Source of the DNA: a virus
Length of the DNA stretch: 64,000 bases
IMG/VR virus record: IMGVR_UViG_3300009165_000006
Strand: one strand, 5' to 3'
Positions within the stretch are counted from its first letter, which is position 1; the number at the start of each line of letters is the position of its first letter. This document shows, in pieces, positions 8,288-59,478 of the stretch. The translations under genes were made by a program, and so were the position numbers. Below the pieces are notes generated by a model, which was not told the origin of the DNA, searched no databases, and was given only the letters and a program-made list of their open reading frames with translations.

Positions 8288-9223
8288 ATGGCAAGCAACA
8301 TCAACTACAAGCAACTTCGGGATGGCACGTGGGGAGTTCAGGGGCGCAATCTTGTGACAGGCCGGACCGTGACGGTCACGAAGAAATCTGGTGAGACCAA
8401 GCAAGAAATAGTGGGAGAGATTGTTTGGAAAGGTACTGACGGCTTCTGCTACGCTAGAATTGCCGAACAGGGTGTTTCCTCTAAGTCTTCGACCCGTAGC
8501 AGCTCTACTCGAGGTAGTTCTACTCGTACCACTTCTACCCGGCGAAGCAGCCGGAAAAGCGGTAAGAAAGAGGGCGCCCAAGAGGGCAAATACTCATCAT
8601 CCCGCGAGGGCGATACGGGGGACGAGATCGGGAGAGTCTGCTTCCTCCGTGCGGGTGGAAACCGCATTCCAGTTGTTGTAGTGGGGTGGCAGACGGGCTA
8701 CTGTAGTGAAGATGGTCTCTCCTTTGGGTTACCAATGGATGATGGGTACTACACGGTTTCGTATTACAGAGACGCAACCGAGGAAGAGGCTACTGCACTT
8801 GCCTCCAAGGAAGCTGCTGCGAAGGCTGCGAAGGACTCAGCGGCCCAACAGGCCAAGGATGCTCGGATGGCAGCGGAGACGGCTGCTCGGGCACCTCTCG
8901 CAGGCCTTACGCGAAGTGATAGCTTGAGCACCCCTGCAGGTACCAAGACCTCGGTTGGTACCTACAAGAGTGAGCACGGGTGGGACATTAGCATCACCCG
9001 GGTCGAGATGGGTGATGCTAATGTGGTCTACATCGAGAGTGCCTACGGCTTCGACGACAGCCGAGAGTACCTCTGGGGCACTCCCGAGGTTCTTGCCACC
9101 CTCTACGAAGCCAGACTTGCTGAGCGTTCAATCAGCAAAGAAGAGGCTCAAGAGTACTTGTCCAAGTACTCGGGTTGCTATGGAGCAGACATCTACAAGT
9201 ACGTAGTCGCGCGAGGTGAGTGA
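8288..9223 (+). CDS. hypothetical protein with Ser/Thr/Arg-rich linker
   Basis: 311-aa ORF. Low-complexity SSTRSSSTRGSSTRTTSTRRSSRKS segment between two globular-looking halves. Confidence 0.7.
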   Translation: MASNINYKQLRDGTWGVQGRNLVTGRTVTVTKKSGETKQEIVGEIVWKGTDGFCYARIAEQGVSSKSSTRSSSTRGSSTRTTSTRRSSRKSGKKEGAQEGKYSSSREGDTGDEIGRVCFLRAGGNRIPVVVVGWQTGYCSEDGLSFGLPMDDGYYTVSYYRDATEEEATALASKEAAAKAAKDSAAQQAKDARMAAETAARAPLAGLTRSDSLSTPAGTKTSVGTYKSEHGWDISITRVEMGDANVVYIESAYGFDDSREYLWGTPEVLATLYEARLAERSISKEEAQEYLSKYSGCYGADIYKYVVARGE

Positions 9224-15705: not shown

Positions 15706-15912
15706 TCAGCTCTTCATGAAATTCGCTGGGCTATCTTTCCGGACTCGATGCTTGATCTCGTCCCGCACCTTGCATCCCTCGGCTGACTTCGTAGGCTCAA
15801 GTGGGGTAGCAGGGGCTCCACAGTTCTTGCACTTGCCGCCCTTCACATAGAGCGGGTTGTGACAGTAGTGGCACTTCGGCCTTCTCTTCGGCGTGTGCTT
15901 CATAACTACCAC
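15706..15912 (-). CDS. zinc-ribbon protein (paralog of 17357..17551)
   Basis: KCHYCHNPLYVKGGKCKNCGAPATPLEP versus KCYYCHRPLYLSDGKCTNCGAPATPLDP in the paralog. GTG start overlaps the upstream stop (GTGGTAG). Alternative ATG at 15903. Confidence 0.6.
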   Translation of the reverse strand: MVVMKHTPKRRPKCHYCHNPLYVKGGKCKNCGAPATPLEPTKSAEGCKVRDEIKHRVRKDSPANFMKS

Positions 15913-16167
15913 CGGACATCCTCCGGGAGCCTCCCATAGGCCAGCTCACAGGCTTCCTCGTACTTCGTAGCCCGCTCAACCTCACCTTCGAGCCGGAGGC
16001 TCATGGCACACGACTTGTTGATGGCGTAGCAAGCTAGCGTCTCCATGATCCGGCGAGCGCCCTTCCGCTTCCCAGTGACAACGACGGCTTCCTTCTGGGT
16101 GGCGATGTGCCACCCAGAAGTCTCGGAGTTCTTCCCGGCTCATTGCGTCGAAGTTTGGGATTTCCAT
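15906..16167 (-). pseudogene. frameshifted paralog of 17545..17811
   Basis: MEIPNFDAMSREELRDFW matches MELTNLEAMTQDELRAFW. After FW, homology (WHIATQKEAVVVTGKRKGARRIMETLACYAINKSC...LPEDVRW*) continues in the +1 frame, and 5 nt are missing relative to the paralog. Confidence 0.6.
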
Positions 16168-16172
16168 GCCTT

Positions 16173-16182
16173 CTATTACGCA
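16173..16182 (-). promoter_or_regulatory. TGCGTAATAG start-proximal motif
   Basis: Minus strand reads TGCGTAATAG AAGGC ATG (ATG at 16167). Confidence 0.45.
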
Positions 16183-16382
16183 CCACCAGCAGAGAATTCA
16201 ACTGAATCTTTGCTACCCACCTCTCCCCATGGTATCATCTGGCTATGGATACTCGACGAAAAGACCACATCCAAAGAGGAGGTCGTGTATTCCTTCCCCT
16301 TTGGCGTATGAGACAGATTAAGTTCGAAGAGGCTGTACTCAATTCGATAGCCAAGCGCGAGGGATTGACTGGTAGTCTTCAT
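16176..16382 (-). CDS. possible ThiS/MoaD-like ubiquitin-fold protein (C-terminal ..AGGA)
   Basis: 68-aa ORF divergent from the E1-like gene. Its C-terminus IPWGEVGSKDSVEFSAGGA* resembles the ThiS/MoaD ending (..gD.V.f....GG). The stop lies inside the downstream TGCGTAATAG motif. It competes with + ORF 16245..16520. Confidence 0.3.
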   Translation of the reverse strand: MKTTSQSLALGYRIEYSLFELNLSHTPKGKEYTTSSLDVVFSSSIHSQMIPWGEVGSKDSVEFSAGGA

Positions 16383-17356: not shown

Positions 17357-17551
17357 TCACTTGAAAAACATGGCTGGTGTGTCCCGACGAAGAGGGTGCT
17401 TGATTTCGTCCTGCACCTTGGGATCTTCAGTGGGCTTCAGCGGGTCAAGTGGAGTAGCGGGGGCACCACAGTTCGTGCACTTGCCATCGCTCAAGTAAAG
17501 CGGACGGTGGCAGTAGTAGCACTTGGGGCGGCCCGTAAGATTACCTACCAC
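17357..17551 (-). CDS. zinc-ribbon protein (paralog of 15706..15912)
   Basis: Track ORF 17357..17590. I prefer the GTG at 17551 overlapping the upstream stop (GTGGTAG), as in the paralog. Confidence 0.6.
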   Translation of the reverse strand: MVGNLTGRPKCYYCHRPLYLSDGKCTNCGAPATPLDPLKPTEDPKVQDEIKHPLRRDTPAMFFK

Positions 17552-17811
17552 CGGACGTCCTCCGGGAGCTTCTCGTACTGGATCTCGCAAGCCTGCTCAT
17601 AGGTCAGGGCAGGTTCAATCTGGCCTTCGAGACGAAGGCCGATAGTACACGATTTGTTGATGGCGTAGCAGGCTAGACTCTCCATGACCTTGCGAGCGTC
17701 TTTCCGGTCACCAAGGAAGAGGCCGGCCTCTTCCTTGGTGGTAACGTGCCACTTCGACCAAAAAGCTCGAAGCTCGTCTTGAGTCATGGCCTCGAGGTTT
17801 GTGAGTTCCAT
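17545..17811 (-). CDS. hypothetical protein (intact copy of duplicated module)
   Basis: 88-aa ORF preceded by the TGCGTAATAG motif. Paralog of 15906..16167. Confidence 0.65.
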   Translation of the reverse strand: MELTNLEAMTQDELRAFWSKWHVTTKEEAGLFLGDRKDARKVMESLACYAINKSCTIGLRLEGQIEPALTYEQACEIQYEKLPEDVRW

Positions 17812-17816
17812 ACGTT

Positions 17817-17826
17817 CTATTACGCA
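17817..17826 (-). promoter_or_regulatory. TGCGTAATAG start-proximal motif
   Basis: Minus strand reads TGCGTAATAG AACGT ATG (ATG at 17811). Confidence 0.45.
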
Positions 17827-17887
17827 CGATTGGGGTGAAACTCAACAAGCAATTGTCTGATTCCTAGGATTGGTGTAGGGTTGAAGC

Positions 17888-18612: not shown

Positions 18613-19220
18613 AACGAGCCTACACGGGCATAGATCTCGATGGGCAAGATCCAAGCTATTTGATTGAGCAGACGTGCTTGCTTATCGCCGGCAAGGATTA
18701 CGATAGAAACATACCTAGACTTGAAGCTTGGAGGGTTCGTCTCGAAGAAGAAAGGCGCGAGAGGAAAGCCAAGCGTGATAGTGTTGAAGCAAAAGCTCGA
18801 GCTATCCTAATGGCCCATCTCGATGAAACCCAAGTGTCTGAGTTCGAATCCTCTGGATCCTTCCACGTCCTTGGTGCCGATGGTTACACCTATCTCATCA
18901 CCTCCAGGGAACAACACAATGTGTTTCGAATCGAGGAGGGACGTCGAACCTTCGAGTACTGCATCGTGACAAGGGATTTCGTACCCCTTCAGGATCAGAT
19001 GCTGACTCAAATGCTTCTCTTGACGACCCATCCTGCGATGTTTCATCAAATCGCGAACACCTGGGAAATTAGAGAAGATGGGACCCGCATCCGCATAGCA
19101 GGGCGACTAGTTGACGTTCTTGAGAACCCAGCCGCCCAAGTCGGCTGGGTTCTCAAATCTCCTTACCGGCAAGTATCTCTCTGTACATCGGGCCTAGCAC
19201 TTTTGAGACACTCCCCTTGA
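18555..19220 (+). CDS. hypothetical protein (start uncertain)
   Basis: 221-aa ORF with TTG start. The 3' end runs through the 19120-19156 stem-loop and overlaps the ligase gene end. Confidence 0.45.
   Translation: MGIRSRSAWDLDRGGLAFVERAYTGIDLDGQDPSYLIEQTCLLIAGKDYDRNIPRLEAWRVRLEEERRERKAKRDSVEAKARAILMAHLDETQVSEFESSGSFHVLGADGYTYLITSREQHNVFRIEEGRRTFEYCIVTRDFVPLQDQMLTQMLLLTTHPAMFHQIANTWEIREDGTRIRIAGRLVDVLENPAAQVGWVLKSPYRQVSLCTSGLALLRHSP
19120..19156. terminator. perfect 15-bp stem-loop at the convergent gene junction
   Basis: TTGAGAACCCAGCCG (19120-19134), loop CCCAAGT, CGGCTGGGTTCTCAA (19142-19156). It includes the ligase stop codon. No U-tract on either strand. Confidence 0.4.
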
Positions 19221-20094
19221 TGCTCTGCTCGGTAGCCCCGAGTTCGGTCATCTCCCGTTGGCAATCCTTGGCCAGGTCTGCGCAAACCGTGGTCAAGATC
19301 AATGGCATGTCCTTCATGGTATGGGTTAATTCAACCCCTCGGTCGTTAAGGCGTCCGACGGCGTTGATGACTCGCCCCTTCGTGACGTACTTGACGATGA
19401 AGTCATCAATCGGAGAAGGACCCCTTGGAGTTTTCTCTTTGGCGGCGGATGCAACTTCAGCGAACTTGGCGCATTTATGCTTACAGATTAGCCAGTTTCC
19501 AAACACGTTTCGGAGAAGAGGATTCGATCGGATGACCACCCCCTCAGCGATGTTGTCATCCCCAAAACCATTGATCTTCCCAACCGTGCTGGGTTTTTCT
19601 AAGAGCGCATCGAAGTTTGCCTGAGTCGGCTCCCCTCGCCACACCTCGGGTATTACAGGTAGCTCCATCTTGGAGCAAAGCTCGATGAACAGGTCGTAGG
19701 TGACAAAGTTCTTGGCCACCATGATGTCGAAGGCTCTGAAAAGAGGCTCCTGACCACTTGAGTATTGAACTCCCTTGGTTTTGATGCCGGGACCGTGAGC
19801 TTCACCAAAAACGGTGACTTCAGAGAACCCGTAGGACTTGATGACCTCCATCATCCTTGTTAGAAGGTCCTTCTGGGCTTTGAACTTGTTAAGCATGCTC
19901 CCGAGCGGGAAGTTCTGCCCAAGTTGATATTCGACGTCACGTGAACCATAACCAATCTCTTCGATGCTTTTCATCCCGAGTGGGAAAAAGAGACGAAAAT
20001 TCGAACCGTGGATTTTCTCGAGGGCAACTACTTCCCTGACAGAAAAGATCTCTGGGCAGTCGGAGAGTTGAACGATTGAAGGGTACTTTTCCAT
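19153..20094 (-). CDS. Rnl2-family RNA ligase
   Basis: Motif I EKIHGSNF (T4 Rnl2 has EKIHGTNF), VFGEAHGPGIK (T4: VFGEFAGPGIQK), AEGVVIRS, ICKHKCAKFAE (T4: IKCKNSKFSE), plus a C-terminal Rnl2-like domain. Confidence 0.88.
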   Translation of the reverse strand: MEKYPSIVQLSDCPEIFSVREVVALEKIHGSNFRLFFPLGMKSIEEIGYGSRDVEYQLGQNFPLGSMLNKFKAQKDLLTRMMEVIKSYGFSEVTVFGEAHGPGIKTKGVQYSSGQEPLFRAFDIMVAKNFVTYDLFIELCSKMELPVIPEVWRGEPTQANFDALLEKPSTVGKINGFGDDNIAEGVVIRSNPLLRNVFGNWLICKHKCAKFAEVASAAKEKTPRGPSPIDDFIVKYVTKGRVINAVGRLNDRGVELTHTMKDMPLILTTVCADLAKDCQREMTELGATEQSIKGSVSKVLGPMYREILAGKEI

Positions 20095-30669: not shown

Positions 30670-33301
30670 ATGGCCGAAGGTAAGAAGGAACTAGTACTAG
30701 TAAACAACGAGTTTGCATGGGTGAAGGATCTGTCAGGGGGTATGATTTGTGTATTGCGGTCCCCACAAGGAGCCGCTATCCGTAGACTCTGTGATTGTGA
30801 TCCAGAATGCGAATAGAGAGTTCGTTCCGATCGGTGGGGACCAACTGAAGGGGCAGACTTTCGTCCAAGCTCTGGAATCCCAGTACATCATCCTACACAA
30901 TCCCGAGACTCCCGGTGCTCGACTGATGACTCGAGGGAAGAACGAAGCCATAGCTCTCCAAACCGGTAAGTGCATCGTCAAACGTGGTCCATGCGAGTTC
31001 CCTCTTTGGCCTGGTCAGCAAGCGGAGGTTGTTGACGGCCATCGCATGACTTCGGACCAGTTCCTTCGAATTCGAGTAGTGGGGGAAGTGGCTCCTGACG
31101 ACGTCAAGGCTCTTCAGTTGTTACTCAAGGAGGACTGGCTCACCTCAAAGCCCATGCCTCAGCCCGTCAAAGCCGAGGAGCCTGCGGGTCTTTTCATCAT
31201 GGCCAGTGCATCCAAGGATCCGGAACCCGTAGAGGATGAGGTCAAGCTACCCGAGCTAACCATCGGCTCTGAGTGGATTGTCCGCGGAATGAAGACCAAG
31301 TTCTTCATTCCTCCTACTGGGGTTACGGTCCTCCCTGCTAATGACCGTGTGACCATAGGGGAAGACCCTTATGTGATGAATGGCGTTCCGCTCGATGCTG
31401 ATGAGTACGTCATTCTGAAGAACCGCAGTGGTCGAATCAGCTACGTTCTAGGCCCAACAACAGTCACCCCCTGCGAAGACCAAGAGTTTCAAGAATCTAA
31501 CAGTGGGTCTCACAACCCAGTCTTCAAGGCCCAAAGTATCGACGAAAACAGCGGTGTTCTACTCCGAACCCTGTTCCCGATGACTCGCAAGACGATCCAA
31601 GAACGTATGGGCTTGGATGTTCAAGTCCAATTTACTCCAATTGCCAACCCCAATGAGGACGGAGAGGAAAGCGATAGGAGAACACCTTCCTCTGATGAGG
31701 TATTACCTCCAGGGACTCAACTTGTCGTTTGGCGGGAGAAGCGATTGGTCTTCCCGGCGGATGGTATCCAGATCATCAAGAAGTTTGAGGCCATCCACAT
31801 TCTAGCGGGTACTGCTCGGTACGTGAAGAACTCGCTGACGGGTAGAACTCGAATCGTGCAAGGGGAATGTCTATACCTAGCTGATCCCCGATGTGAGGAG
31901 TTCACCAGCCGTCGTCTGACCAAAGAGATGATCGGACTCTGGCTTCCGGGGCAAACCTTCGAGACTTACAACCCCGAACTGGTTCCCTGCATTACCGTTC
32001 CTCAGGGTACGGCCGCCATGATCCTCAAGCGAGGAATTGGCTCAAACACTCGCAAGACCATCATTGGTTATGCCACTTACTTTCTGGAGTGGGACGAGAC
32101 CCTCTGCGAGATGAAGCTCTCGACCTCGCGGGGTGGAGAAGCCAAGACCTATCAGAATGCAATCAAGATCTGCTACCTCTGGATGAAGTCCAATCGAATT
32201 AACGATGCTCTACTGGATGGACGTACCCGGGAGGATTGTGAGTTCTCGATCCAATACACCCTGACGGTTGACTTCGAGGAGGAGCACAATGACTCCTGGT
32301 TCAACGTCGATGACTATGTGTTTCTCGTCTGTGAAGAGGTTCGCTCACGTCTACGCGGAGGTCTCCTTGCTACCTCCATCAGCGAATTGTCCACAAACTA
32401 CGTCGAGATCATCCGAGACATAGTTCTCGGCATGAAGCCCAGTGTACCGCTTAAGAGTGAAGACCCACTAGCCAGGCTAGAAGCCTATACCATACCTCAC
32501 CGCCCAGGAATCGAGTTCCCGAGGTTCGGAGCTCGACTGGTCGACATCAACATCAATGCCTTCAGTATTCGAGATCCAGAACTGCAGGGGCAGCTCCGCC
32601 AACTTCAGATGGCGGGGATCAACGAGTCTGTTCGAACTCGAACAGCTCAGATCATCTTAGATGGGGCTCGAATTCGAGCGGAGATTGAGAGGAACCAAGC
32701 CACCCTTGCCACGGAGACCACCAAGTTCAAGAAGGGTCAGGAGCTTATAAACACTGAGGTGGCTGAAGAGACCACTCGTAAGAAAGGTCAGCAAGAGCAT
32801 CAAACGGCCCTTGCTTACTTGGAAGCGGAAAAGGCTCGGTTATTGGCTGAAGCAAGTAAGAACCTTGAGGTAGCTGCGAAGAATGACGAGCTATCGAAAT
32901 CTCAGCTAACTACTCAAGCTACTCTTGCAGATCTTGGACTCAAGATCACCGAGCTCAAGAAGCTGACTGATCTTGCAGTTCTCGAAGTAACTAGCAAGAA
33001 TATGGAGCTCAAACGTCAAGACGAAACCGAAAAGGTGAAGGCAACTGCCGAGGCCGCTGCTATCGTCAACAACTCGGTCTTACCGACTCTCGGGGCACAC
33101 CTGGCGGAGATTCGAGACTCCCTCGTTGCAGACAAGCTGGTTAGTGCCTTCGGTGCAGCGGCAAGCTTCCGAGGCGTGGAAGTCGTCGAGCTTGCTGCTC
33201 AGACCCTCAGCTCGTTACCCGGTTTGGGATCTGTTCTTGGTCGACTACGTCGGAATCCTTCACGGAATGAAGGCCAGGGTAGCCCTCAAGCGACTAGATA
33301 A
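30670..33301 (+). CDS. major vault protein (MVP)-like protein; N-terminal 26 codons in a different frame (+1 shift near 30746-30752)
   Basis: Track ORF 30749..33301 (GTG start). QYIILHNPE...CEFPLWPGQ parallels MVP [9 protein letters not shown]...DPFPLYPGE. The shoulder-like DDYVFLVCEEVRSRLRG and the long C-terminal coiled coil parallel the MVP shoulder and cap-helix. ATG 30670 ORF (MAEGKKELVLVNNEFAWVKDLSGGMI) aligns with the MVP N-terminus. Confidence 0.75.
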
Positions 33302-45249: not shown

Positions 45250-45520
45250 TGAACCTCGATAAGAACTATCGCACGCCTTGACTCCAGTGACGAACTGTGA
45301 ACCGCTTCAACCACTCTTACGCGCGAGCTTGTCTGAATCTCAACTAAATTGAGTATAGCCTTCCAAAAGACCGTTCTGTGAAACTTATTCAAAGTTGCTC
45401 ATAGGAGAACTCCGATGTTCACTTCCTGCTTCAACGAGACATGACTCGTAGGCCGAAGGGTTCTCCTTCGTTCCGCCGCTAGAGGACTCTCCACAGGCTT
45501 TTTAGCGCCGAAGGCGCCTA
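45250..45520 (-). ncRNA. predicted omega RNA (reRNA) region of the TnpB element
   Basis: By analogy with IS200/605 TnpB loci, the guide RNA scaffold overlaps the tnpB 3' end and the right end. The 154-nt non-coding stretch after the stop contains the hairpin CTCAA-CTAAA-TTGAG (45339-45353). Boundaries are not determinable by eye. Confidence 0.35.
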
Positions 45521-46643
45521 GGTTCCTCGGGAACTCCGAGTACCTTTCCAAATTCTTCGCCGCATTCTCATCTCGATCATGAATAGCTCCACATCCTTCA
45601 CAAACCCACTCTCTCACAGAAAGAGCCAGCTGCGGCCGTTTAAGGCCGCAGCTGGTACATATCTTCGAGGATGGGAACCATCGATCAGCTACTTCTAGCT
45701 TAGATCCATACCAAGTGGTCTTGTAGGAAAGTAGCCTCTTACTTTCAAACCACCCTTGGTCCAAGATCGACCGAGAAAGGTGAGGATTCTTACTCATTCC
45801 ACGAATACCAAGGTCTTCCACAACGATGGCTGACTTGGTTTTCGCCAGCCCCGTTGTGAACTTATGAAGGAAATCCCTTCGAACGTTTGCTACTCGTGAG
45901 TGAATCCTCGCTAATCTTTGAGCTGATTTCCTCCTATTTGACGAACCCTTACGCTTCCTCGAATGAGAGCGTTGAGCCCTTCTTAACCGACTTAACGCTT
46001 GTTTCAATGGATTCGGGGCATGTATCTTCGTACAGGCCCCGTCCGAAGAGACCGTAGCGAAAGTAAGAATCCCTAGATCTACCCCAGCTTTTGGTCCTTG
46101 GATAGGAATAGGATCCGTCACGACCTCAACGGTATTGACGGATACGAACCATCGATCTGCTACCCTCGAAATCGTAGCTGAAAGGATCTCCCCACTAATC
46201 CTGCCGTTGATCTTCTCTTTGGTTCGAATAGTCCCAAGCCTAGGGAGCTTAATATACCTAGTTTGTGGCTCAATTGAACCATAGAGACGGAAGGAATCCT
46301 TTGATTTATGCTTCTTTTTGAACTTTGGGAAGCCAACTCCTTCTGATCTTCTGGACCAGAAAGCTTTGAAAGCTTTGTCAAGATCACGAAGAGCTTCCTG
46401 AGGGGCACACTTGGAAACCTCGTACATCCAAGGGAAGTCAGGGCCCTTGCGGGCGTTGAGGTCCCGATGTTCAGCGATGGCGTTGGTGAACTTCTCCTTA
46501 CCTTCTTGGGTTCGGAAGCGTTCGATCCTCCTTTGGAGGGACCAATTCCAAGCGAAGCGAGCCGTTCCGGCATGCTTCGCCAAGAACGTCCGAACCCGAT
46601 TGTTCGGATCTAACTCGAACTTATACGCCTTCCGAAGTTCCAT
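45399..46643 (-). CDS. tnpB: TnpB (IS200/IS605 OrfB-family RNA-guided endonuclease)
   Basis: MELRKAYKFELDPN...FLAKHAGTARFAWNW (OrfB N-terminus), RuvC-I GVDLGILTFAT, RuvC-II AIVVEDLGIRGM, Zn finger CTSCG...CEGCG, RuvC-III HDRDENAAKNL. Confidence 0.92.
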   Translation of the reverse strand: MELRKAYKFELDPNNRVRTFLAKHAGTARFAWNWSLQRRIERFRTQEGKEKFTNAIAEHRDLNARKGPDFPWMYEVSKCAPQEALRDLDKAFKAFWSRRSEGVGFPKFKKKHKSKDSFRLYGSIEPQTRYIKLPRLGTIRTKEKINGRISGEILSATISRVADRWFVSVNTVEVVTDPIPIQGPKAGVDLGILTFATVSSDGACTKIHAPNPLKQALSRLRRAQRSHSRKRKGSSNRRKSAQRLARIHSRVANVRRDFLHKFTTGLAKTKSAIVVEDLGIRGMSKNPHLSRSILDQGWFESKRLLSYKTTWYGSKLEVADRWFPSSKICTSCGLKRPQLALSVREWVCEGCGAIHDRDENAAKNLERYSEFPRNLGAFGAKKPVESPLAAERRRTLRPTSHVSLKQEVNIGVLL

Positions 46644-49805: not shown

Positions 49806-50108
49806 ATGGATACAACGCAAATCCTAAAAGTATCGGAGAGATACAGATCAATATTTCAGCTTGCAGGAGCTACTCCTCGAAAGTGGGATACCTCTCTGAA
49901 CACTTGTCCAGGAAACCTCTGCGCTTATGATCACTGCTTTTGGATGTGCGAGGAGATTCGGAAGATGATACCAGCGAATCCGGAAAAGGCTGTTCGTTGG
50001 TTGTGCTTCGTTCAGGGCATCCTCTGGGTTTCTGGAAAATCTAGTATCGATTCTATGCGGGAGGATAATCGACTCATCCTCGGTAGTCAAGCCGACTGCC
50101 GAGGATGA
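49806..50108 (+). CDS. hypothetical protein
   Basis: 100-aa ORF, ATG start. Confidence 0.55.
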   Translation: MDTTQILKVSERYRSIFQLAGATPRKWDTSLNTCPGNLCAYDHCFWMCEEIRKMIPANPEKAVRWLCFVQGILWVSGKSSIDSMREDNRLILGSQADCRG

Positions 50109-50233
50109 GGGGGCGCATGACCCCGAAGTGGCTCAGCGTCGCTCATCACTTCGACTCCGACACAGTCCGTTCAAGGCGGTTAGCAGCCTCTGAGAGGTCT
50201 CCGTTAATGAGTTGGGCACCCGCCACGCTTCTT

Positions 50234-50269
50234 CACTACACCAAACTCAAACACGATTCTGGTGTAGTG
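50234..50269 (+). promoter_or_regulatory. 10-bp-stem hairpin upstream of the Cas-like operon
   Basis: CACTACACCA (50234-50243), a 16-nt loop, TGGTGTAGTG (50260-50269). Ends 22 nt before the GTG at 50292. Single copy in the window. Confidence 0.35.
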
Positions 50270-50291
50270 TACTGCGACGAATGAGGTGTGA

Positions 50292-51218
50292 GTGCTAGCA
50301 ACAAGAAAATGCGCATTCGACTCATGCGAGATAGAGTTCGAACCAACACATCCATACCAACAATACTGCTGTACTAGGTGCAAGGAGCGCGCTCGTTGGC
50401 ATCGTTCAGAACAGATTGAAAAATCCAAGAAACGCAGCCAAAAGTGGTACTCCGATCCGGAAAATAAGCTCAACCACAGGGTAGCTCGAAGGGGTAGACG
50501 CATGTCAGTAAAAACTGGTAGAGGTGAATGGGAGATGCCAGCCCCAATGATCGAATACCTACCGGGCGGATGCGTCCCGATTGCTATTGAGTGTGGGTAT
50601 AAGTTCGAACATTGGCAACTTGCATCACTTCACGGAATGATGAGTACGATCACTGGACCTCACTCAGCCAACAACCCAGTATTTACACTGTTTCCGTGGC
50701 ACATAGGGTGCGGATGGGCCGCGTACATTCGAGATATTGAGTTAGCCAGATCGATTGCCATGCGTACACACGTGGTCAACTTCAATGACCGTGAGCAGGA
50801 ACTCGCTCTAGGATGGCTCGTACGTGTCAAAGCACCACAGATCAAGCCAGGTGCTTGGAAACTTCGAATCACAACTATTACACCTGTGTGTTGTCGCGCA
50901 ACTGGAGGGACTTATTACATGGCTCCAACTGCGAACAACATCAAAGGGACTCTTGAGGTAAACGTTGCACGAAGGCTTGGAATAAAGACTGAGAAACACG
51001 ACGTTCAGGTCAGATTGCTTGACTCAAAAGCCTTCTTAGACAAGCTTCGACTATCTGGCAATGGCAGCAAGCTTGGTGACATTTGTGGGTGGTCTGGAAG
51101 CATCGACATTGAAGTGAATGCGCTTGGTAGGCTTCTGCTTGAATGTGCCGCCCTCGGCATGGGATTGGGAGGCAAGTTGGCGTTTGGATTTGGGCGAATC
51201 AAGGTAGAGACAATATGA
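50292..51218 (+). CDS. Cas6-like RAMP protein with N-terminal zinc-ribbon extension
   Basis: The C-terminus GMGLGGKLAFGFGRIKVETI is the glycine-rich loop typical of Cas6/RAMP C-termini. N-terminus CAFDSC...CCTRC. GTG start. First gene of a 6-gene operon. Confidence 0.55.
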   Translation: MLATRKCAFDSCEIEFEPTHPYQQYCCTRCKERARWHRSEQIEKSKKRSQKWYSDPENKLNHRVARRGRRMSVKTGRGEWEMPAPMIEYLPGGCVPIAIECGYKFEHWQLASLHGMMSTITGPHSANNPVFTLFPWHIGCGWAAYIRDIELARSIAMRTHVVNFNDREQELALGWLVRVKAPQIKPGAWKLRITTITPVCCRATGGTYYMAPTANNIKGTLEVNVARRLGIKTEKHDVQVRLLDSKAFLDKLRLSGNGSKLGDICGWSGSIDIEVNALGRLLLECAALGMGLGGKLAFGFGRIKVETI

Positions 51219-52387
51219 GGCCCTCGCCAAGTCAGCTGCTTCACAAAGCAATAGGAAGCCCGCGGGTTGACGGGTGCTCGGAGGCAAACGGTCTTTGCTA
51301 CGTTTGCGCAGGTCCTGTAGTTCGAGGAAAACCCGTTGTCGACTGGTGTACTTCAAGTTACACAGATCAGAATCGTGCGCGTTGTCCTGCAGCAATTTAC
51401 GTCTGTGAGGCATGTTGCATGCTTGCTGCACGTACTTTTCCAGTCCCTGGGCGCCCGCCAGGACAGTGTTCGGTTTGCGAGGGAACCGGAACTGTGAAAA
51501 AGATTCCTCCCAAGGGCAAAGGAAAGGCGTCCAAGATCGGAGACGCTTGCCCTAAGTGTGGTGGTACGGGCGAAGCGTCGTTCGGTGGCAACTTCCGCAA
51601 TTACAGCCACCTATATGAGGAGGGGTGGGATTCACCGTCACTTCCGGATGGAACCGTGATCCCAGGCTACCTGAACGCATCAAAGGGAGAAAAACCGATC
51701 GTGCTTAACTTCCTAAGGCGTGACCACCACGGCATGTGGTTCGCTGCAATCGCAGACAGTGGACAGAAGCATGTGGTGCATCATACACCACCGAACCTGC
51801 TCGGTCCAGGCGGAACGGTGCTGTTCGAGGAGACGCTTGTTAGCATCCCACCAGGTCTCTCGCTGGTAGACGAAATGACAGCACTTCTCACCGCTGGAGC
51901 AACAAAGGAAGAGATTCTCATCGGAGAATATAGCCAGTTCACATGGCTGCGCTTGGAGACAGCAATCCGTGAATTTGAGGGTCGTAACGCGAAGCGGCGG
52001 CATACTGGGTGGTTTCGTTTGGCGCTATGGCTATCTCAACGAGATGAGGCAGCAGTAGCTATAAGGATTGAAGCCGAGAAGGCAGCAGAGAAAGAACGTA
52101 AGGCACGGACCAAACAGAGAACCAAGGAGACTCAAAGTGTTGAAACAGGAAGAAAGAAAGCATCTCGAAACACTTCTTGTCGAGATGCTGTTATCGATCC
52201 GAGACCGGTATGTGAAGGACAAAGGGGGGAAGGTAAAGCCGGACTACCTCGAACAGATCCAAAACCGAGCCAGAACAAGTGCAGAAATGTCACCGACCAT
52301 CAATCGGTGGGTGAACGAGCTTCAAATAGACCTACAAATGCAGAGCATCGACACGTGGGGCAGCTCAGCCTCTTCAACGCTCCTTGA
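51215..52387 (+). CDS. Csf1-like (type IV Cas8-like) zinc-finger large subunit candidate
   Basis: ATGA overlap with the upstream stop. N-terminus CYVCAG...SSYTDQN...VCEACC has the Csf1-like CxxC..FTD-like..CxxC layout. Inserted DnaJ-type CSVCEGTG...CPKCGGTG. The last ~85 codons are low-complexity and overlap the next ORF. Confidence 0.45.
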   Translation: MRPSPSQLLHKAIGSPRVDGCSEANGLCYVCAGPVVRGKPVVDWCTSSYTDQNRARCPAAIYVCEACCMLAARTFPVPGRPPGQCSVCEGTGTVKKIPPKGKGKASKIGDACPKCGGTGEASFGGNFRNYSHLYEEGWDSPSLPDGTVIPGYLNASKGEKPIVLNFLRRDHHGMWFAAIADSGQKHVVHHTPPNLLGPGGTVLFEETLVSIPPGLSLVDEMTALLTAGATKEEILIGEYSQFTWLRLETAIREFEGRNAKRRHTGWFRLALWLSQRDEAAVAIRIEAEKAAEKERKARTKQRTKETQSVETGRKKASRNTSCRDAVIDPRPVCEGQRGEGKAGLPRTDPKPSQNKCRNVTDHQSVGERASNRPTNAEHRHVGQLSLFNAP

Positions 52388-52607
52388 TCTAGTAAGCTTC
52401 TGCGACGAACACTCGTGCCACAGAGAAGCGAAAATGATGGTAATTCGCGATGGTGCGTTCTTGTTTGCATTGCTCCGCAAACAGATCGAACTTCGCAAAG
52501 AAGAACGGGAGCGAGAGAAGCAGGAGCGAATCCTTGGGAAACTTACCAAGGAAGACATGTTGGCAGCAGCAGAAGAGAATGGATTGTTAGTTGAGGAAAC
52601 GGCATAA
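52137..52607 (+). CDS. Cas11-like small subunit candidate
   Basis: GTG at 52137 preceded by AAGGAGA (6-nt spacer). About 156 aa, helical and charged. Sits between the large-subunit-like and Cas7-like genes. Frame is +1 relative to the upstream ORF. Track ORF 52068..52607. Confidence 0.4.
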   Translation: MLKQEERKHLETLLVEMLLSIRDRYVKDKGGKVKPDYLEQIQNRARTSAEMSPTINRWVNELQIDLQMQSIDTWGSSASSTLLDLVSFCDEHSCHREAKMMVIRDGAFLFALLRKQIELRKEEREREKQERILGKLTKEDMLAAAEENGLLVEETA

Positions 52608-53590
52608 TGGAGACAACTCGATACATTTCGGTGGTCAGGGCAGTTCAACCGATCGCGCATCACAAGGGTAGTATCGGAAATCACGCAACGATCATGCGTG
52701 CAGCTGTAAGGCTTCCTGGCGGAGAGATCGCAGACGTGCCAGAGGGCACTGGTAACGCAGTTAGAAATCGATTACGCCGAGCTGCCGCGATCTGTTCATT
52801 GGACGCAGCTGGAATTCTGGGGGATCCCCAACTCGAACGTGGAGCGATGCGGCTGCTGTTCAACGGCGGAATGCTCACTGGAAAGGGTGATGGGACCACG
52901 ATCAACATCGATCGATGGCGCGAGCTTGTGACGCTATTCCCGTTTCTTGGGATCCTTGGGGGTTGCATCGACAATCGTACCCAAGGCGGACAACTCAATG
53001 TTGACGCACTGAAGCTCATCTGCGAGGAAAACATGCACTCGCTAAATCCATGGACGCGACAGTGGCTCAAGGATAACAATGAAGGGATCTGCGAAAGCTC
53101 CTACCTACTTGAGAAAGTTCAACGGGTGAATATGGACCCGGAGATCCTTCCCGAGAACCTGAAACTGCTTTCGGAGGGTGCGAGGTTACAAGTCTATAAC
53201 AAGCTACTAGCACAGGGTAAAGCTCACGAGGAGGGGAACGCGATCGAGGCCGCAAAAGTCAAGAGCGACATGATGCCGCATACGTTCGAGCGAATCATTC
53301 GCGGGTCATTGTTTCAACTGTCGTTCTTGTTGAGGTCTTATAACGAGCTTGAGCGAGACGCTTTCGAGTACGCCTACTCCTGCCTATTGAACAACTTCCG
53401 TTTCGGAGGAAAACAAGCATCAGAACACGGGGAACTCGAATTCCTTGCGGGTGCCAGGGTTCACTTCAAACAATACACAGGAGAGCTCGACATCGGTGAG
53501 CGAAAAGGAACCGGTGATCTGTTCCGAGCGCACGTTACCGATCACAAGGAACAGCTGGTGAACTGGTTACGGCACGAGGTAGCAGCGTGA
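52607..53590 (+). CDS. Csf2/Cas7-like RAMP backbone subunit
   Basis: Three blocks as in Csf2/Cas7: VPEGTGNAVRNRLRR (..GNslRg.lR), LLFNGGMLTGKG (L.sGG.l) and LFPFLGILGG (..P...LFGG). TAATG overlap with the upstream gene. Confidence 0.6.
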   Translation: METTRYISVVRAVQPIAHHKGSIGNHATIMRAAVRLPGGEIADVPEGTGNAVRNRLRRAAAICSLDAAGILGDPQLERGAMRLLFNGGMLTGKGDGTTINIDRWRELVTLFPFLGILGGCIDNRTQGGQLNVDALKLICEENMHSLNPWTRQWLKDNNEGICESSYLLEKVQRVNMDPEILPENLKLLSEGARLQVYNKLLAQGKAHEEGNAIEAAKVKSDMMPHTFERIIRGSLFQLSFLLRSYNELERDAFEYAYSCLLNNFRFGGKQASEHGELEFLAGARVHFKQYTGELDIGERKGTGDLFRAHVTDHKEQLVNWLRHEVAA

Positions 53591-54240
53591 ACTACGAGCC
53601 AATCAAGGTCAGCTGCAAGCTTGCCGAGGGGTTCGTAATGCGAACCCCTACCGTGTTGGATTCACTATTGGCCGCAGTGATAGCAATGCGTGAGCAGTTG
53701 CCTACTCCGATATCCGAGGACGAAATCAAAGAGATCCCAGTACCCATTGACGAAGCTGCTGGGATTCGACTGTGCTCATCGGCCATGTTTGAGATAGAGG
53801 AGACATTCGGCTCATTTCGAACACGACGCCCACCAATCGAAGAATACTGCCACTTTGGAAAGCGTGGTGGTTCCGTATCGATTGCTAGTGGCCCCGACAA
53901 GCTCTATATGATGGAGTATGACTACCAGTTCGCAGTTGACGACAAAGTGACATGGTTTGCATTGGGAGACATTGTCAGTGTACACAACTTACTGACGGAT
54001 GTATTCTACCTCGGCAAACATCGCTCAATCGGCAAAGGGCGGATCATTGAAGGCTCATGGAAGGTTGAAAGCTGTAAACCCTGGGGTGAAGGGTTTCCGG
54101 TGGTTCATAACGGCACTCCGAAGCGTCCCTTGCCGTTAGGTTGGCCTGGCGTGGCCACGACAACCAGGACCGGTTACGCAACGTTACGACCCCCCTATTG
54201 GATGTACTCTCGTGAGGAAGCCTGCTTCCTCCCAGGATAG
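53587..54240 (+). CDS. Csf3/Cas5-like RAMP subunit
   Basis: N-terminus ..RTPTVLDSLLAAVIA (LDgLL-type block) and glycine-rich loop LGKHRSIGKGRI. 217 aa. GTGA overlap with the Cas7-like gene. Confidence 0.5.
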   Translation: MNYEPIKVSCKLAEGFVMRTPTVLDSLLAAVIAMREQLPTPISEDEIKEIPVPIDEAAGIRLCSSAMFEIEETFGSFRTRRPPIEEYCHFGKRGGSVSIASGPDKLYMMEYDYQFAVDDKVTWFALGDIVSVHNLLTDVFYLGKHRSIGKGRIIEGSWKVESCKPWGEGFPVVHNGTPKRPLPLGWPGVATTTRTGYATLRPPYWMYSREEACFLPG

Positions 54241-55701
54241 ATGAAAGCTCTAGCTTGCACGCTCGACACATGGGATGCCTTCGCAAGGGCCACCGGAAGA
54301 ACTGAGACCACCGGTCTCACGTTTCCCCTACGAATACTCGAGATTATCGGAAAGCCCTACGGACTAGAGCTCGAATACGCGAACAAACTGAACCGCCATG
54401 ACGCAGTGTTCATAGCGGTTCACGACTTTAGTTCGATGCTGTCCCTTGGAAAGGCGATGCAGAAGCTGAAATTGCCGCTACTTGCCAAAGACCGCGACCG
54501 AAGTCACCCGCTCGTATGGATGGGCGGACAAGGTACACGCAATCCGCTACCTATTGCCGATATTGCTGACTTGATAGTGCTTGGGGATGCAGAGCTCTCG
54601 CTGCCTCAATTACTCCAAATATGGGAGCGAAATGGGAACAGTAGAGAGTTCCTGGTGGGAGCGTCTACTGTCTCTGGGGTATTCGTTCCTTCGATCCACA
54701 ACGAAAATGAGGTGACCCTGAAAATGGGTTGGTCACCGGATATACGAACTTCACTTCAAAGCAGAAGCCTACCAATGGAACAGCATGCCAGAATCGAGCT
54801 CTCGCGTGGATGCAAGAGCAAGTGCTCATTCTGCGGACTCGGATGGATGGGTCCAGTTCGACATAACACCTTGGACGACGTACGGGATGCTATCCGAGGA
54901 GTGCCTTCGGTCCACCTGCAGGCTTGCGATGCCGAAGCTTACCCGGACATCGTTCGGTTGCGTGAGTGGATGCGCGAGAGAGGAATCAAAGACACCGGGT
55001 GTACCTCACGTCTCGATTCTAATTACGATGCTAGGAGCGAATTTCTATTCGACAAGTTGTTCAATTTCGGAATCGAGGCTGTGACCGAGCGTGTCCGCCG
55101 CAAAATCGGCAAGGCCAGACTAACGAACGACTTCATCGTTGAGGCTATGTGCGGGCTATACGAGAGACAGAAAACGCGGAAGGGTGAAGCCTGTGAGAAG
55201 ACCAATTGGCACATGATCTCTGGACTTCCGGGGGAGTTGGTATCTGAAACCGCGGAACTGGCGCAGACAATCCGAAGGCTCGATGCGACAATGCTGGAAC
55301 GGAGAATCACCGGGCAGCTAACGATCCGATGGCAACCGTTACTACCCTGTCCTGGGACACCACTGCAGTGGTGTCCCATTGGGCCGGATTGCGAGCCGTG
55401 GAGTAAGGCCTTGGCCAGAAACATCCGCAAAACGTACTGTCTGAAGCTAGAACATGGTTCCGGGAGACAGGAACGAAAGCACGCCCTGACCTGTATACTG
55501 ATGCGGTCAGGGCGTGTGGGGGCAAAGCTGATCGCACTTGAGTCAAAGTCTGCGGTTACCCCAGTTGCCGCGGTCGAGCTTACCGGGACGACTACCGGTA
55601 AGCTCGACCTTAGTGGTCCGCTTCCATGGGATTTCGTGCATGGTTACTACCCGCGAGGGGTGCTCGAAAAGGCCTACAAAAAGACCATACAATGCACGTA
55701 G
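54241..55701 (+). CDS. radical SAM enzyme with N-terminal B12-binding-like domain
   Basis: IELSRGCKSKCSFCGLGW gives CX3CX2C at 54811-54834 (aa 191-198). N-terminal VWMGGQGTRNP...DLIVLGDAELSLPQLL resembles the class B (cobalamin-domain) rSAM fold. The start abuts the Cas5-like stop. Confidence 0.8.
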   Translation: MKALACTLDTWDAFARATGRTETTGLTFPLRILEIIGKPYGLELEYANKLNRHDAVFIAVHDFSSMLSLGKAMQKLKLPLLAKDRDRSHPLVWMGGQGTRNPLPIADIADLIVLGDAELSLPQLLQIWERNGNSREFLVGASTVSGVFVPSIHNENEVTLKMGWSPDIRTSLQSRSLPMEQHARIELSRGCKSKCSFCGLGWMGPVRHNTLDDVRDAIRGVPSVHLQACDAEAYPDIVRLREWMRERGIKDTGCTSRLDSNYDARSEFLFDKLFNFGIEAVTERVRRKIGKARLTNDFIVEAMCGLYERQKTRKGEACEKTNWHMISGLPGELVSETAELAQTIRRLDATMLERRITGQLTIRWQPLLPCPGTPLQWCPIGPDCEPWSKALARNIRKTYCLKLEHGSGRQERKHALTCILMRSGRVGAKLIALESKSAVTPVAAVELTGTTTGKLDLSGPLPWDFVHGYYPRGVLEKAYKKTIQCT

Positions 55702-55715
55702 ACTGGAACGAGGAA

Positions 55716-55958
55716 TCAGTTAGATCGTTTTGGCGGAAGAAGCTCGTGAAAAACGAATCCATCCGTAGACTCTGTAAGAAACAGACGCATCCCCGGCTTC
55801 AATTCCGGGTACTTCGCCACATCCTCAGCGGTAATAGTGAACTTGAAAATCGTATCATCCACTTCGTCTGCCATACCCTTTTGGGCGCGTTCCCAAAAGT
55901 CAAGAACAAACTTGGGCTCTCCTTGAAACTTGTCAGTCAATCGATCTCCATTCAGCAT
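55716..55958 (-). CDS. hypothetical protein
   Basis: 80-aa ORF preceded by the TGCGTAATAG motif. Confidence 0.6.
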   Translation of the reverse strand: MLNGDRLTDKFQGEPKFVLDFWERAQKGMADEVDDTIFKFTITAEDVAKYPELKPGMRLFLTESTDGFVFHELLPPKRSN

Positions 55959-58122: not shown

Positions 58123-59478
58123 ATGAAAGTCCCTGAAAGAGTCCGTTTTATCTGCAGTATCTTGAATCAAGCAGGCTTTGAAGCCTGGGTTGTTGGTGGC
58201 GCAGTGCGCGACTCTATACTTGGCCGAGAAGCTCACGACTTCGATGTGGCCACTAATGCTCTCCCTGATAGAGTCGTCAGGCTGTTCAGTCGTGTCATTG
58301 AGACCGGTATCCAACATGGAACGGTCACGGTCATGATTGAAAACGAGGGCTTCGAGGTCACCACCTTCCGTGGTGAAGGTACCTACTCGGATGGGCGCCA
58401 CCCAGATAGTGTCAGGTTCTTGGACTCTATCATCGAGGACTTGGCTCGTCGAGACTTCACAATGAATGCGGTCGCGTACGACCCCTTGACAGGGAAGTTC
58501 TGTGACCCCTTCGGTGGGGTGCAGGATATCGAATGCATGCTCATCCGAGCTGTAGGATCTCCTGAAGAAAGATTCCAAGAAGACGGCTTGAGAGTCATGC
58601 GAGCTATTCGTTTCATGAGTACTCTGGGATTCTCCATTGAACCACGTACTCTCGAAGGTATGGCGAAGATTGATTCCCTAGCCTCCCTAGCCAAGGTCAG
58701 CGTTGAACGGGTCAGGGACGAGCTCTTTAGGATCATGGGCTCGAAAGCACCCTCTCGTTCAATGAATGCCATAGTTCATACCGGAGTCTTGGACGTGATC
58801 CTACTAGAGATGCGCCCGATGGTTGGGTGTACTCAAAATCGGTACCATTCCTACGACGTTTGGACCCACACGATGGTTACTCTCGACCATTGTCCGGATG
58901 ACAACCCTATCCTCAGGTTTGGGGCTCTCTTTCACGATATCGCAAAGCCCGAGGTGAAAGGGGTTCACCCAGTCCATGGGGATGCCACTTTCTACGATCA
59001 TGAGCTGGTGGGGGCAAAGAAGACCGATGAGATCTTGACTCGGTTGAGGTTCTCAACCGAAGATCGGGAGAAGATTGTTCACTTGGTTGAGCACCACTTC
59101 ATCCGGTACGAACACGAGTGGTCGAATTCAGCGCTTCGTCGTTGGGTTCGGAAGGTTGGATTGGAGAGCGTCCCCACTTTCTGCACTCTCGCCCGGGCGG
59201 ACATCGCCGGGAAAGGGCCTATAGCCACAGTTGAATCCGAGAATTCAGTCATTGATGACCTGGAGAATCGGGTATCCAGACTGCAATTGACCGAAGTGAT
59301 CCCAACGTCAATCAAGGTGCTTGCCATCGACGGGAACGACGTGATGGCTCACTTGGGTATAGGACCAGGCCCTAGGATAGGAAGAGTGCTAGAAAGCCTT
59401 CTAGACGCCGTAACGGAGGACCCAGAACTCAACACCCGGGAGAAGCTCTTGGAGCTTGCCAGGGAAGTTCAAGTGTGA
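58123..59478 (+). CDS. cca: CCA-adding enzyme / tRNA nucleotidyltransferase with HD domain
   Basis: VVGGAVRDSILGREAHDFDVAT (GG.vRD...G....D.D), ERV.DEL, and a C-terminal HD domain (LFHDIAKP...HH). Confidence 0.9.
   Translation: MKVPERVRFICSILNQAGFEAWVVGGAVRDSILGREAHDFDVATNALPDRVVRLFSRVIETGIQHGTVTVMIENEGFEVTTFRGEGTYSDGRHPDSVRFLDSIIEDLARRDFTMNAVAYDPLTGKFCDPFGGVQDIECMLIRAVGSPEERFQEDGLRVMRAIRFMSTLGFSIEPRTLEGMAKIDSLASLAKVSVERVRDELFRIMGSKAPSRSMNAIVHTGVLDVILLEMRPMVGCTQNRYHSYDVWTHTMVTLDHCPDDNPILRFGALFHDIAKPEVKGVHPVHGDATFYDHELVGAKKTDEILTRLRFSTEDREKIVHLVEHHFIRYEHEWSNSALRRWVRKVGLESVPTFCTLARADIAGKGPIATVESENSVIDDLENRVSRLQLTEVIPTSIKVLAIDGNDVMAHLGIGPGPRIGRVLESLLDAVTEDPELNTREKLLELAREVQV

Follow-up and report, generated by a model that had tools for sequence, protein, structure and literature searches.

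A phage-borne, type IV-B-like Csf module in which a radical-SAM enzyme appears to take the place of the CysH-like partner

[quoted passage not shown] The function of subtype IV-B as a whole is termed enigmatic in the 2025 classification, which distinguishes three type IV subtypes and leaves radical S-adenosylmethionine (radical-SAM) enzymes unmentioned. In the review by Taylor et al., the IV-B complex has been proposed to recruit CysH for the modification of bound nucleic acid (PMC8175902), and the solved IV-B complex is reported to have bound heterogeneous non-CRISPR RNA (PMC7937560). Here, we describe a six-gene operon on a 64,000-nucleotide (nt) stretch of viral DNA, the IMG/VR record IMGVR_UViG_3300009165_000006 (hereafter “the window”). 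Judged by its gene content, this operon is best described as encoding a type IV-B-like module in which a radical-SAM enzyme takes the place of the CysH-like partner.

The six open reading frames (ORFs) of the operon span positions 50292–55701 on the plus strand and are joined by translationally coupled junctions. The stop codon of ORF1 (50292–51218) overlaps the ATG of ORF2 at 51215 (ATGA). ORF2 (51215–52387) encodes Csf1, the large subunit of type IV, with the selected coding part ending near 52115, and is followed by ORF3 (52137–52607), a small subunit of ~156 amino acids (aa) in the Cas11 position when counted from GTG 52137, the stop of which shares a TAATG (52605–52609) with the start of ORF4 (52607–53590). 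ORF4 encodes Csf2, the type IV Cas7 backbone subunit, and ORF5 (53587–54240), whose GTG (53587) and the stop of ORF4 overlap in a GTGA, encodes Csf3, the type IV Cas5; the ATG of ORF6 (54241–55701), the radical-SAM gene, directly abuts the ORF5 stop at 54238–54240. These overlapping and abutting stops and starts, together with the lack of any plus-strand terminator-like site inside the six-ORF block, point to one transcription unit. In an earlier note on this DNA, the same ORFs and junctions had been listed along with a set of diagnostic motifs, all of which are present in the translated sequences (GLGGKLAFGFGRIKVE, GNAVRNRLRR, LFNGGMLTGKG, LFPFLGILGG, LDSLLAA, GKHRSIGKGRI and CKSKCSFC). Comparison of the operon with the related locus L037 (68–78% protein identity) places most substitutions at third codon positions, a pattern to be expected of genes that are expressed and under purifying selection. 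Around the operon, nothing relevant came up in scans for Rfam families and tRNAs.

The coupling of a radical-SAM gene to csf genes is not confined to the window. We collected 39 radical-SAM loci from IMG/VR, from genomes in GTDB, from JGI metagenomes and from Logan assemblies, and searched these loci with the window proteins by tblastn and by iterated hidden Markov models (jackhmmer); collapsing of sequences at an identity of at least 95% left 24 lineages with enough flanking DNA for evaluation. The linkage to csf3 is near-obligate: in 23 of the 24 evaluable lineages, at radical-SAM identities of 29–77%, csf3 lies at most 700 bp from the radical-SAM gene. Usually, csf1, a cas11-like gene, csf2 and csf3 are arranged upstream of the radical-SAM gene on the same strand; in two of the csf3-linked lineages, the orientation is divergent. 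The persistence of the linkage down to ~29% identity argues for a functional association rather than for shared ancestry of one contig, and a location of the radical-SAM gene next to csf3 by chance is effectively excluded. Conservation of this gene beside homologous modules, for which a neighbourhood survey had been recommended in the earlier note, is thus evident. An apparent Csf3–radical-SAM fusion in lineage L019 turned out to be an artefact, with matches in different frames and long open frames in GC-rich DNA.

Among close modules, the radical-SAM gene alternates with CysH-like genes. In the relatives whose Csf2 is 52% (L038), 40% (P0022 locus) and 27% (Skermania phage SPI1) identical to that of the window, a CysH-like gene directly follows csf3. 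At 48% Csf2 identity (L042), it is found ~2 kb downstream of csf3; at 38% (L041), it lies beyond one 223-aa gene, in the range of 0.7–4 kb downstream of csf3; and at 36% (L039/L040), two CysH-like genes occur downstream of csf3, at 2.6 and 4.3 kb. The PAPS_reduct genes in the Csf2 relatives at 36–52% identity score above the Pfam cut-off. Conversely, no CysH-like match was obtained in the radical-SAM loci, and in the window a profile built from the CysH-like genes of the sister loci gave a best E value of only 1.7 against the six-frame translation. On a rough neighbour-joining tree of Csf2, which covers the related loci, CysH-linked and radical-SAM-linked loci interleave, suggesting repeated partner exchange. 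The type IV-like effector operon proposed in the earlier note therefore stands as type IV and is narrowed by its CysH-bearing Csf2 relatives to a IV-B-like one. From a strict IV-B system the locus departs in two respects, namely in having no CysH-like gene and in encoding a Cas6.

The Csf subunits of the operon are identified by profile similarity, and the signature protein of type IV, Csf2, is encoded together with Csf3 and Csf1. ORF2 matches the PADLOC profile Csf1_0_IV with an E value of 1.4e-13 (residues 6–279), ORF4 the profiles typeIV_Cas7 (E 9e-33, residues 9–322) and Csf2_0_IV (E 3.5e-31), and ORF5 the profile Csf3_0_IV over its full length (E 1.3e-29), in agreement with the assignments made from the motifs; the similarity of Csf2 and Csf3 to Cas7 and Cas5 profiles, a point on which the earlier proposal depended, is hence significant. 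The corresponding NCBIfam equivalog models give weak scores below their cut-offs (TIGR03114 for ORF2, E 4e-5, residues 4–74; TIGR03115 for ORF4, E 1e-5; TIGR03116 for ORF5, E 9e-8), which marks the three proteins as divergent members of these families. The nearest solved sequence to ORF4 is the type IV-B Csf2 of 7JHY (E 5e-6), one of the 30 ORF4 homologues carries the JGI name Csf2, and matches to the Pfam family PF27782 (Csf3) occur among the neighbour genes in related loci. At residues 79–121 (51449–51577), the Csf1 protein contains a DnaJ-like CxxCxGxG double zinc-finger insert (Pfam DnaJ_CXXCXGXG, E 0.012).

ORF3, which had been described as a small protein in the Cas11 position, has no family match. 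Nearly all related loci keep a gene of ~125–160 aa in the interval from csf1 to csf2, and the ORF3 profile gave a non-significant match (E 1.2) to the type IV-B Cas11 of 7JHY in a comparison with the PDB. Position and size agree with Cas11, and the profile adds a non-significant hint; we use the name Cas11 in this positional sense. The most likely start codon of ORF3 is GTG 52137, which is preceded by the ribosome-binding site AAGGAG at 52124–52129 and fits the N-termini of the homologues. According to codon-position substitutions relative to L037, the selected frame switches from ORF2 to ORF3 at ~52115; the final ~270 nt of ORF2 (52115–52387) remain open, yet substitutions track the frame of ORF3. 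An openness of the csf1 frame over ~270–320 nt of the cas11-like gene is also seen in several diverged relatives (L037, L038, L001, L013, L017 and L021). Purine-rich, T-poor sequence may be behind it, and a Csf1–Cas11 fusion product made by frameshifting may be considered as a candidate.

At the head of the operon, ORF1 combines an N-terminal NinG-like zinc ribbon (CxxC...CxxxC) with a Cas6-fold domain of two RNA-recognition motifs (RRMs) and a glycine-rich loop; two ferredoxin/RRM-like domains followed by a C-terminal glycine-rich loop are the hallmark of the Cas6 family. Matches to Cas6 profiles are weak (PADLOC, E 3e-5). In the AlphaFold model (11 homologues; predicted local distance difference test score 78), several Cas6 structures match over ~200 residues, and the loop GLGGKxAFGFGR as well as the histidines of LHG and PH are invariant in the ORF1 family. 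Model and conserved loop support the earlier view of ORF1 as a Cas6-type protein and lead us to regard it as a protein of the Cas6 fold to which a zinc ribbon has been added at the N-terminus, with cleavage of repeat RNA as a putative activity. No candidate repeat for ORF1 is located near the operon, the window's single repeat family being that of a Cas12j array.

ORF6 is composed of an N-terminal Rossmann-like (B12-binding-like) domain, a TIM barrel with the CxxxCxxC motif and a C-terminal helical domain. It matches PF19864 and PF04055, the latter above the Pfam cut-off; C191, C195 and C198 are the sole invariant cysteines among 26 family members, and the fold matches many radical-SAM structures, all of which bears out its recognition as a radical-SAM enzyme. 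The additional label “B12-type” holds by the modelled fold, which ORF6 shares with the class B methylases MgmA, CysS and TsrM; the B12-binding family PF02310 finds no match in ORF6, and the use of cobalamin is unproven by sequence. As the auxiliary 4Fe-4S cluster of MiaB and RimO needs three cysteines and the N-terminal domain of ORF6 contributes no conserved ones beyond the radical-SAM triad, the enzyme should not be a methylthiotransferase. Its closest structures include MgmA and RimO, which act on proteins, AprD4, CysS and TsrM, which act on small molecules, and MiaB, which acts on tRNA.

The proteins related to ORF6 form a small family of their own. Among 5.8 billion protein clusters, ~50 close relatives were found, with E values from 0 to 1e-80; TIGR03960-like proteins follow after a gap of ~55 orders of magnitude, at E >1e-25. 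When 1.84 billion representatives at 50% identity were searched in full with HMMER, only 15 of them reached E ≤1e-30. A relative with 98% identity (P0031) is located on a JGI contig of 120 kb. Among GenBank phages, no full-length relative of ORF6 was found. From the TIGR03960 family itself ORF6 is clearly set apart by its score of 67.6 bits versus a family cut-off of 462, and it contains no DUF2344 domain, to which TIGR03960/PF19864 proteins are often fused. The idea that this usual partner in TIGR03960 fusions could be a hidden relative of Cas6 was dropped when hhalign assigned a probability of 1% to the alignment of the ORF1 family with 21 DUF2344 regions.

The only array in the window is found at 1603–1936 and consists of five repeats of 36–37 nt with the repeat end GATTGCCCAATTCGTTGGGAC. 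The window opens inside a Cas12j gene, the frame 1–1572 matching CasΦ-2 residues 293–756 (E 2e-91), and since the array follows this CasΦ-2-like gene, it is assigned to Cas12j. With the partial Cas12j gene and the Csf operon, two CRISPR-type effectors that are unrelated to each other are found in the phage. A search near the operon for single copies of the Cas12j repeat detected none at up to three mismatches. The context of Cas12j and TnpB mentioned in the earlier note is real in both parts; a complete TnpB gene with OrfB_IS605 and TNB domains is located at 45399–46643 on the minus strand, 3.6 kb upstream of the operon.

Upstream of ORF1, a hairpin at 50234–50269 (plus strand) with a 10-bp perfect stem and a free energy of −14.7 kcal/mol had been singled out as the only one of the locus. 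It is not special: perfect inverted repeats with a stem of at least 10 bp and a loop of 3–20 form 23 distinct hairpins in the window, unrelated in sequence, versus ~0.8 expected by shuffling (e.g., 8985–9024, 19120–19156, 50073–50109, 55353–55378, 55480–55516 and 55572–55609). Many of them are in coding regions; the final 350 nt of the radical-SAM gene alone contain three. No counterpart of the hairpin at 50234–50269 was seen upstream of the ORF1 homologues in L001, L003 and L018. Its reading as a Cas6 substrate is accordingly not supported, and it probably does not belong to the system as a specific element. In L003, which bears a Cas6 and a type IV module of the radical-SAM kind, two 37-nt direct repeats with 92% identity and a 35-nt spacer occur at 19927–20035, in non-coding DNA of 490 nt that lies downstream of that module at a distance of 8.5 kb; they may represent a mini-CRISPR array and are treated here as a lead rather than as evidence.

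Sister loci contain further genes that recur with the module. F10 is a conserved domain of ~90 aa with the motifs TPHAVxRYxER…AHFVK…WRG…RLR…TVL (L037, 8302–8622; L038, 8467–8745; L017, 3628–3924; L040, 5685–5948; L015, 11473–11727; and others) and is found in CysH-type and radical-SAM-type loci alike; frequently, the zinc-ribbon protein encoded upstream of csf1 in sister loci ends in F10 where that of the window has Cas6. It has no Pfam match, its best PDB match is a non-significant one to Smr/MutS2 (E 0.44), and a likeness to RNase toxins of the DUF4258 type was not confirmed. F15 is a conserved gene of 122 aa that overlaps the radical-SAM stop codon in the clades nearest to the window (L001, 11322–11690; L003, 11416–11784; L037, 13093–13464; L034, 463–822). 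The window lacks F15; there, ORF6 is followed instead by a small ORF in convergent orientation on the minus strand (55716–55958). Nucleic acid-modifying enzymes are likewise encountered: L042 (3512–6266) encodes a Cas6-like protein, a fusion of a SpoU methylase and a phosphatase, and a CysH-like protein, and L039 (11616–16736) an N6/N4 methylase and two PAPS reductases, the same phage also encoding DpdA and a cytosine methylase. In L038, a nucleotidyltransferase resembling the CCA-adding type is encoded downstream of the CysH-type locus, at a distance of ~5 kb.

How such a module might work can be outlined as follows. Csf2, Cas11, Csf3 and Csf1 would assemble on RNA, as they do in the solved IV-B complex, and the Cas6 subunit would bind or trim that RNA. 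The resulting ribonucleoprotein would bring the radical-SAM enzyme to the bound or base-paired nucleic acid, on which the enzyme would perform a radical modification, most likely C-methylation in view of the class-B-like fold of ORF6. For the phage, this could serve counter-defence or competition with other mobile elements; adaptive immunity is probably not the purpose, given that neither an adaptation module nor an array is present beside the operon. Nucleic acid is favoured as the substrate because the radical-SAM enzyme swaps with a PP-loop-type enzyme, because sister operons encode RNA or DNA methylases, and because the same idea has been put forward for CysH (PMC8175902). Partner swap and sister-locus methylases together narrow the hypotheses to those in which the complex holds a nucleic acid or nucleotide that is covalently modified. 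That a phage-borne IV-B-like module, consisting of the zinc-ribbon-Cas6, Csf1, the Cas11-like protein, Csf2 and Csf3 and having its CysH-like accessory replaced by a radical-SAM enzyme, acts in this manner is the explanation we favour, with a confidence only slightly above even. More tentatively, the RNA-loaded Csf filament could be a programmable or RNA-selective platform that delivers radical-SAM chemistry, such as the C-methylation of an unactivated carbon, to specific sites in RNA or DNA, so that nucleic acid would be modified under RNA guidance instead of being cleaved or repressed, with the CysH-like, SpoU-like and N6/N4-methylase enzymes of sister loci as alternative writers, a generalization we put forward as possible but doubtful.

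Several findings weigh against the favoured explanation. In L031 (9512–11479), alone among the relatives, the radical-SAM gene is preceded by an F10-domain gene and the 10 kb to each side are free of csf genes, and no Csf–radical-SAM fusion protein was found among the collected loci. In extension of the earlier note, which found none for several kb, no CRISPR-like array is present within 10 kb of the operon, and this applies to every fetched related locus as well; the one array that the window does contain has a repeat of the Cas12j type. Since the RNA bound by the IV-B complex is reported to be heterogeneous (PMC7937560), it is also unproven that a specific RNA provides the guidance. Furthermore, the closest structures of ORF6 include protein and small-molecule modifiers in addition to the tRNA modifier MiaB.

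An alternative which we regard as unlikely is that the substrate of the radical-SAM enzyme is a protein rather than nucleic acid, the enzyme being either a post-translational maturase of a Csf subunit or a modifier of a host protein brought close by the complex. Rather improbable, too, is that the Csf complex serves as a sponge for guide RNAs of the host or of rivals, the captured RNAs being inactivated by the radical-SAM enzyme with no sequence-specific targeting. A sponge (anti-CRISPR) model is discussed in PMC8175902, and it would be in line with the phage-borne setting, with the heterogeneous RNA bound by the IV-B complex and with the lack of arrays or adaptation genes next to any locus. 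However, a Cas6-fold subunit with a conserved glycine-rich loop and invariant histidines suggests that a defined RNA is recognised, and the Cas6-bearing L003 has its CRISPR-sized element of two repeats 8.5 kb away; moreover, the sponge overlaps with the favoured explanation in that the chemistry would still take place on nucleic acid. We give little credence to the proposal that, once its RNA or DNA has been recognised by the Csf complex, a signal or toxin is made by the enzyme from a free nucleotide or metabolite. Analogues would be the cyclic-oligoadenylate signalling of type III systems and viperin-like chain terminators, but viperin-type enzymes match ORF6 far less than class-B-like and methylthiotransferase-like ones do, and no conserved downstream gene for a sensor or effector is apparent, the recurrent extras being solely F10 and F15. 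Finally, that the radical-SAM gene is an unrelated auxiliary gene of the phage is highly improbable: genes are densely packed in phage genomes, radical-SAM genes are frequent there, and L031 is without csf genes, but 23 of 24 lineages from differing contigs and samples keep the gene within 700 bp of csf3 down to ~29% identity, the window has abutting or overlapping starts and stops, and CysH-like genes hold the same position by csf3 in L038, the P0022 locus and SPI1.

The radical-SAM enzyme provides a second, chemically distinct enzyme with which the modification idea for IV-B can be tested, its activity being easily readable via the formation of 5'-deoxyadenosine and the mass shift of the product. 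If guide-directed, the system would constitute an RNA-guided writer with clear tool potential, and it would add a mode of phage counter-defence.

Elsewhere in the window, a nucleotidyltransferase of the CCA-adding type is encoded at 58123–59478 on the plus strand, 2.4 kb downstream of the operon. Between 39194 and 41187, four tandem units of ~530–560 bp, 63–78% identical, lie in a coding stretch with many Ala, Glu and Trp motifs, the product of which looks like a repeat protein. An 850-aa ORF at 30749–33301 matches the shoulder domain of the major vault protein (PF11978, E 3e-9), which is unexpected for a phage genome, and a segment of ~280 bp is duplicated at 15903–16183 and 17542–17827, the two copies being 1.64 kb apart and 73–76% identical.

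A pairing of type IV genes with a radical-SAM gene is not described in the 2025 classification (main text and supplement), the 2021 review or the 2023 survey of rare systems with its supplements, and the term “radical SAM” does not occur in the full text of the 2020 type IV survey (PMC7038947); this accords with the earlier note, in which no radical-SAM-coupled variant was known. On the evidence available, the csf/radical-SAM variant is undescribed in the literature searched, which was largely without subscription papers, so that an earlier description is possible. The sole radical-SAM protein listed as CRISPR-linked in that literature is UAS-99, “Radical SAM protein” (Altae-Tran et al. 2023, PMC10910872 supplement). 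By our own reading of its sequence, UAS-99 has a MoaA-like cysteine motif, the supplement table gives it no type IV label, and, with no significant similarity to ORF6 (BLASTP E 1.8), it was dismissed as a member of the same system.

With respect to the type IV subtypes, the locus differs from IV-A, characterised by DinG, in possessing a gene in the Cas11 position and from IV-C, characterised by a Cas10-like HD protein, in possessing Csf1; neither the operon nor the flanking ORFs that were tested showed DinG, RecD or HD-Cas10, and no array is adjacent. Domains of an effector nuclease, Cas1 or Cas2 were likewise absent from the six genes and from the tested flanking ORFs, which are a part of the ORFs of the window. 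Subtype IV-B is the closest relative. As in the IV-B locus of Mycobacterium sp. JS623 (7JHY), the gene order is csf1, small subunit, csf2 and csf3, followed by one enzyme gene, and IV-B likewise has no adjacent array, adaptation genes not being seen in the window operon or the tested flanking ORFs. Contrary to IV-B, the lineage of the window is phage-borne and without a match in PLSDB, where no plasmid carries a Csf2 relative at E 1e-5. In addition, IV-B is defined as being without an enzyme for the processing of CRISPR RNA (PMC8175902), whereas the operon of the window starts with a Cas6-fold gene; and where IV-B has its CysH-like signature, a radical-SAM enzyme stands here.

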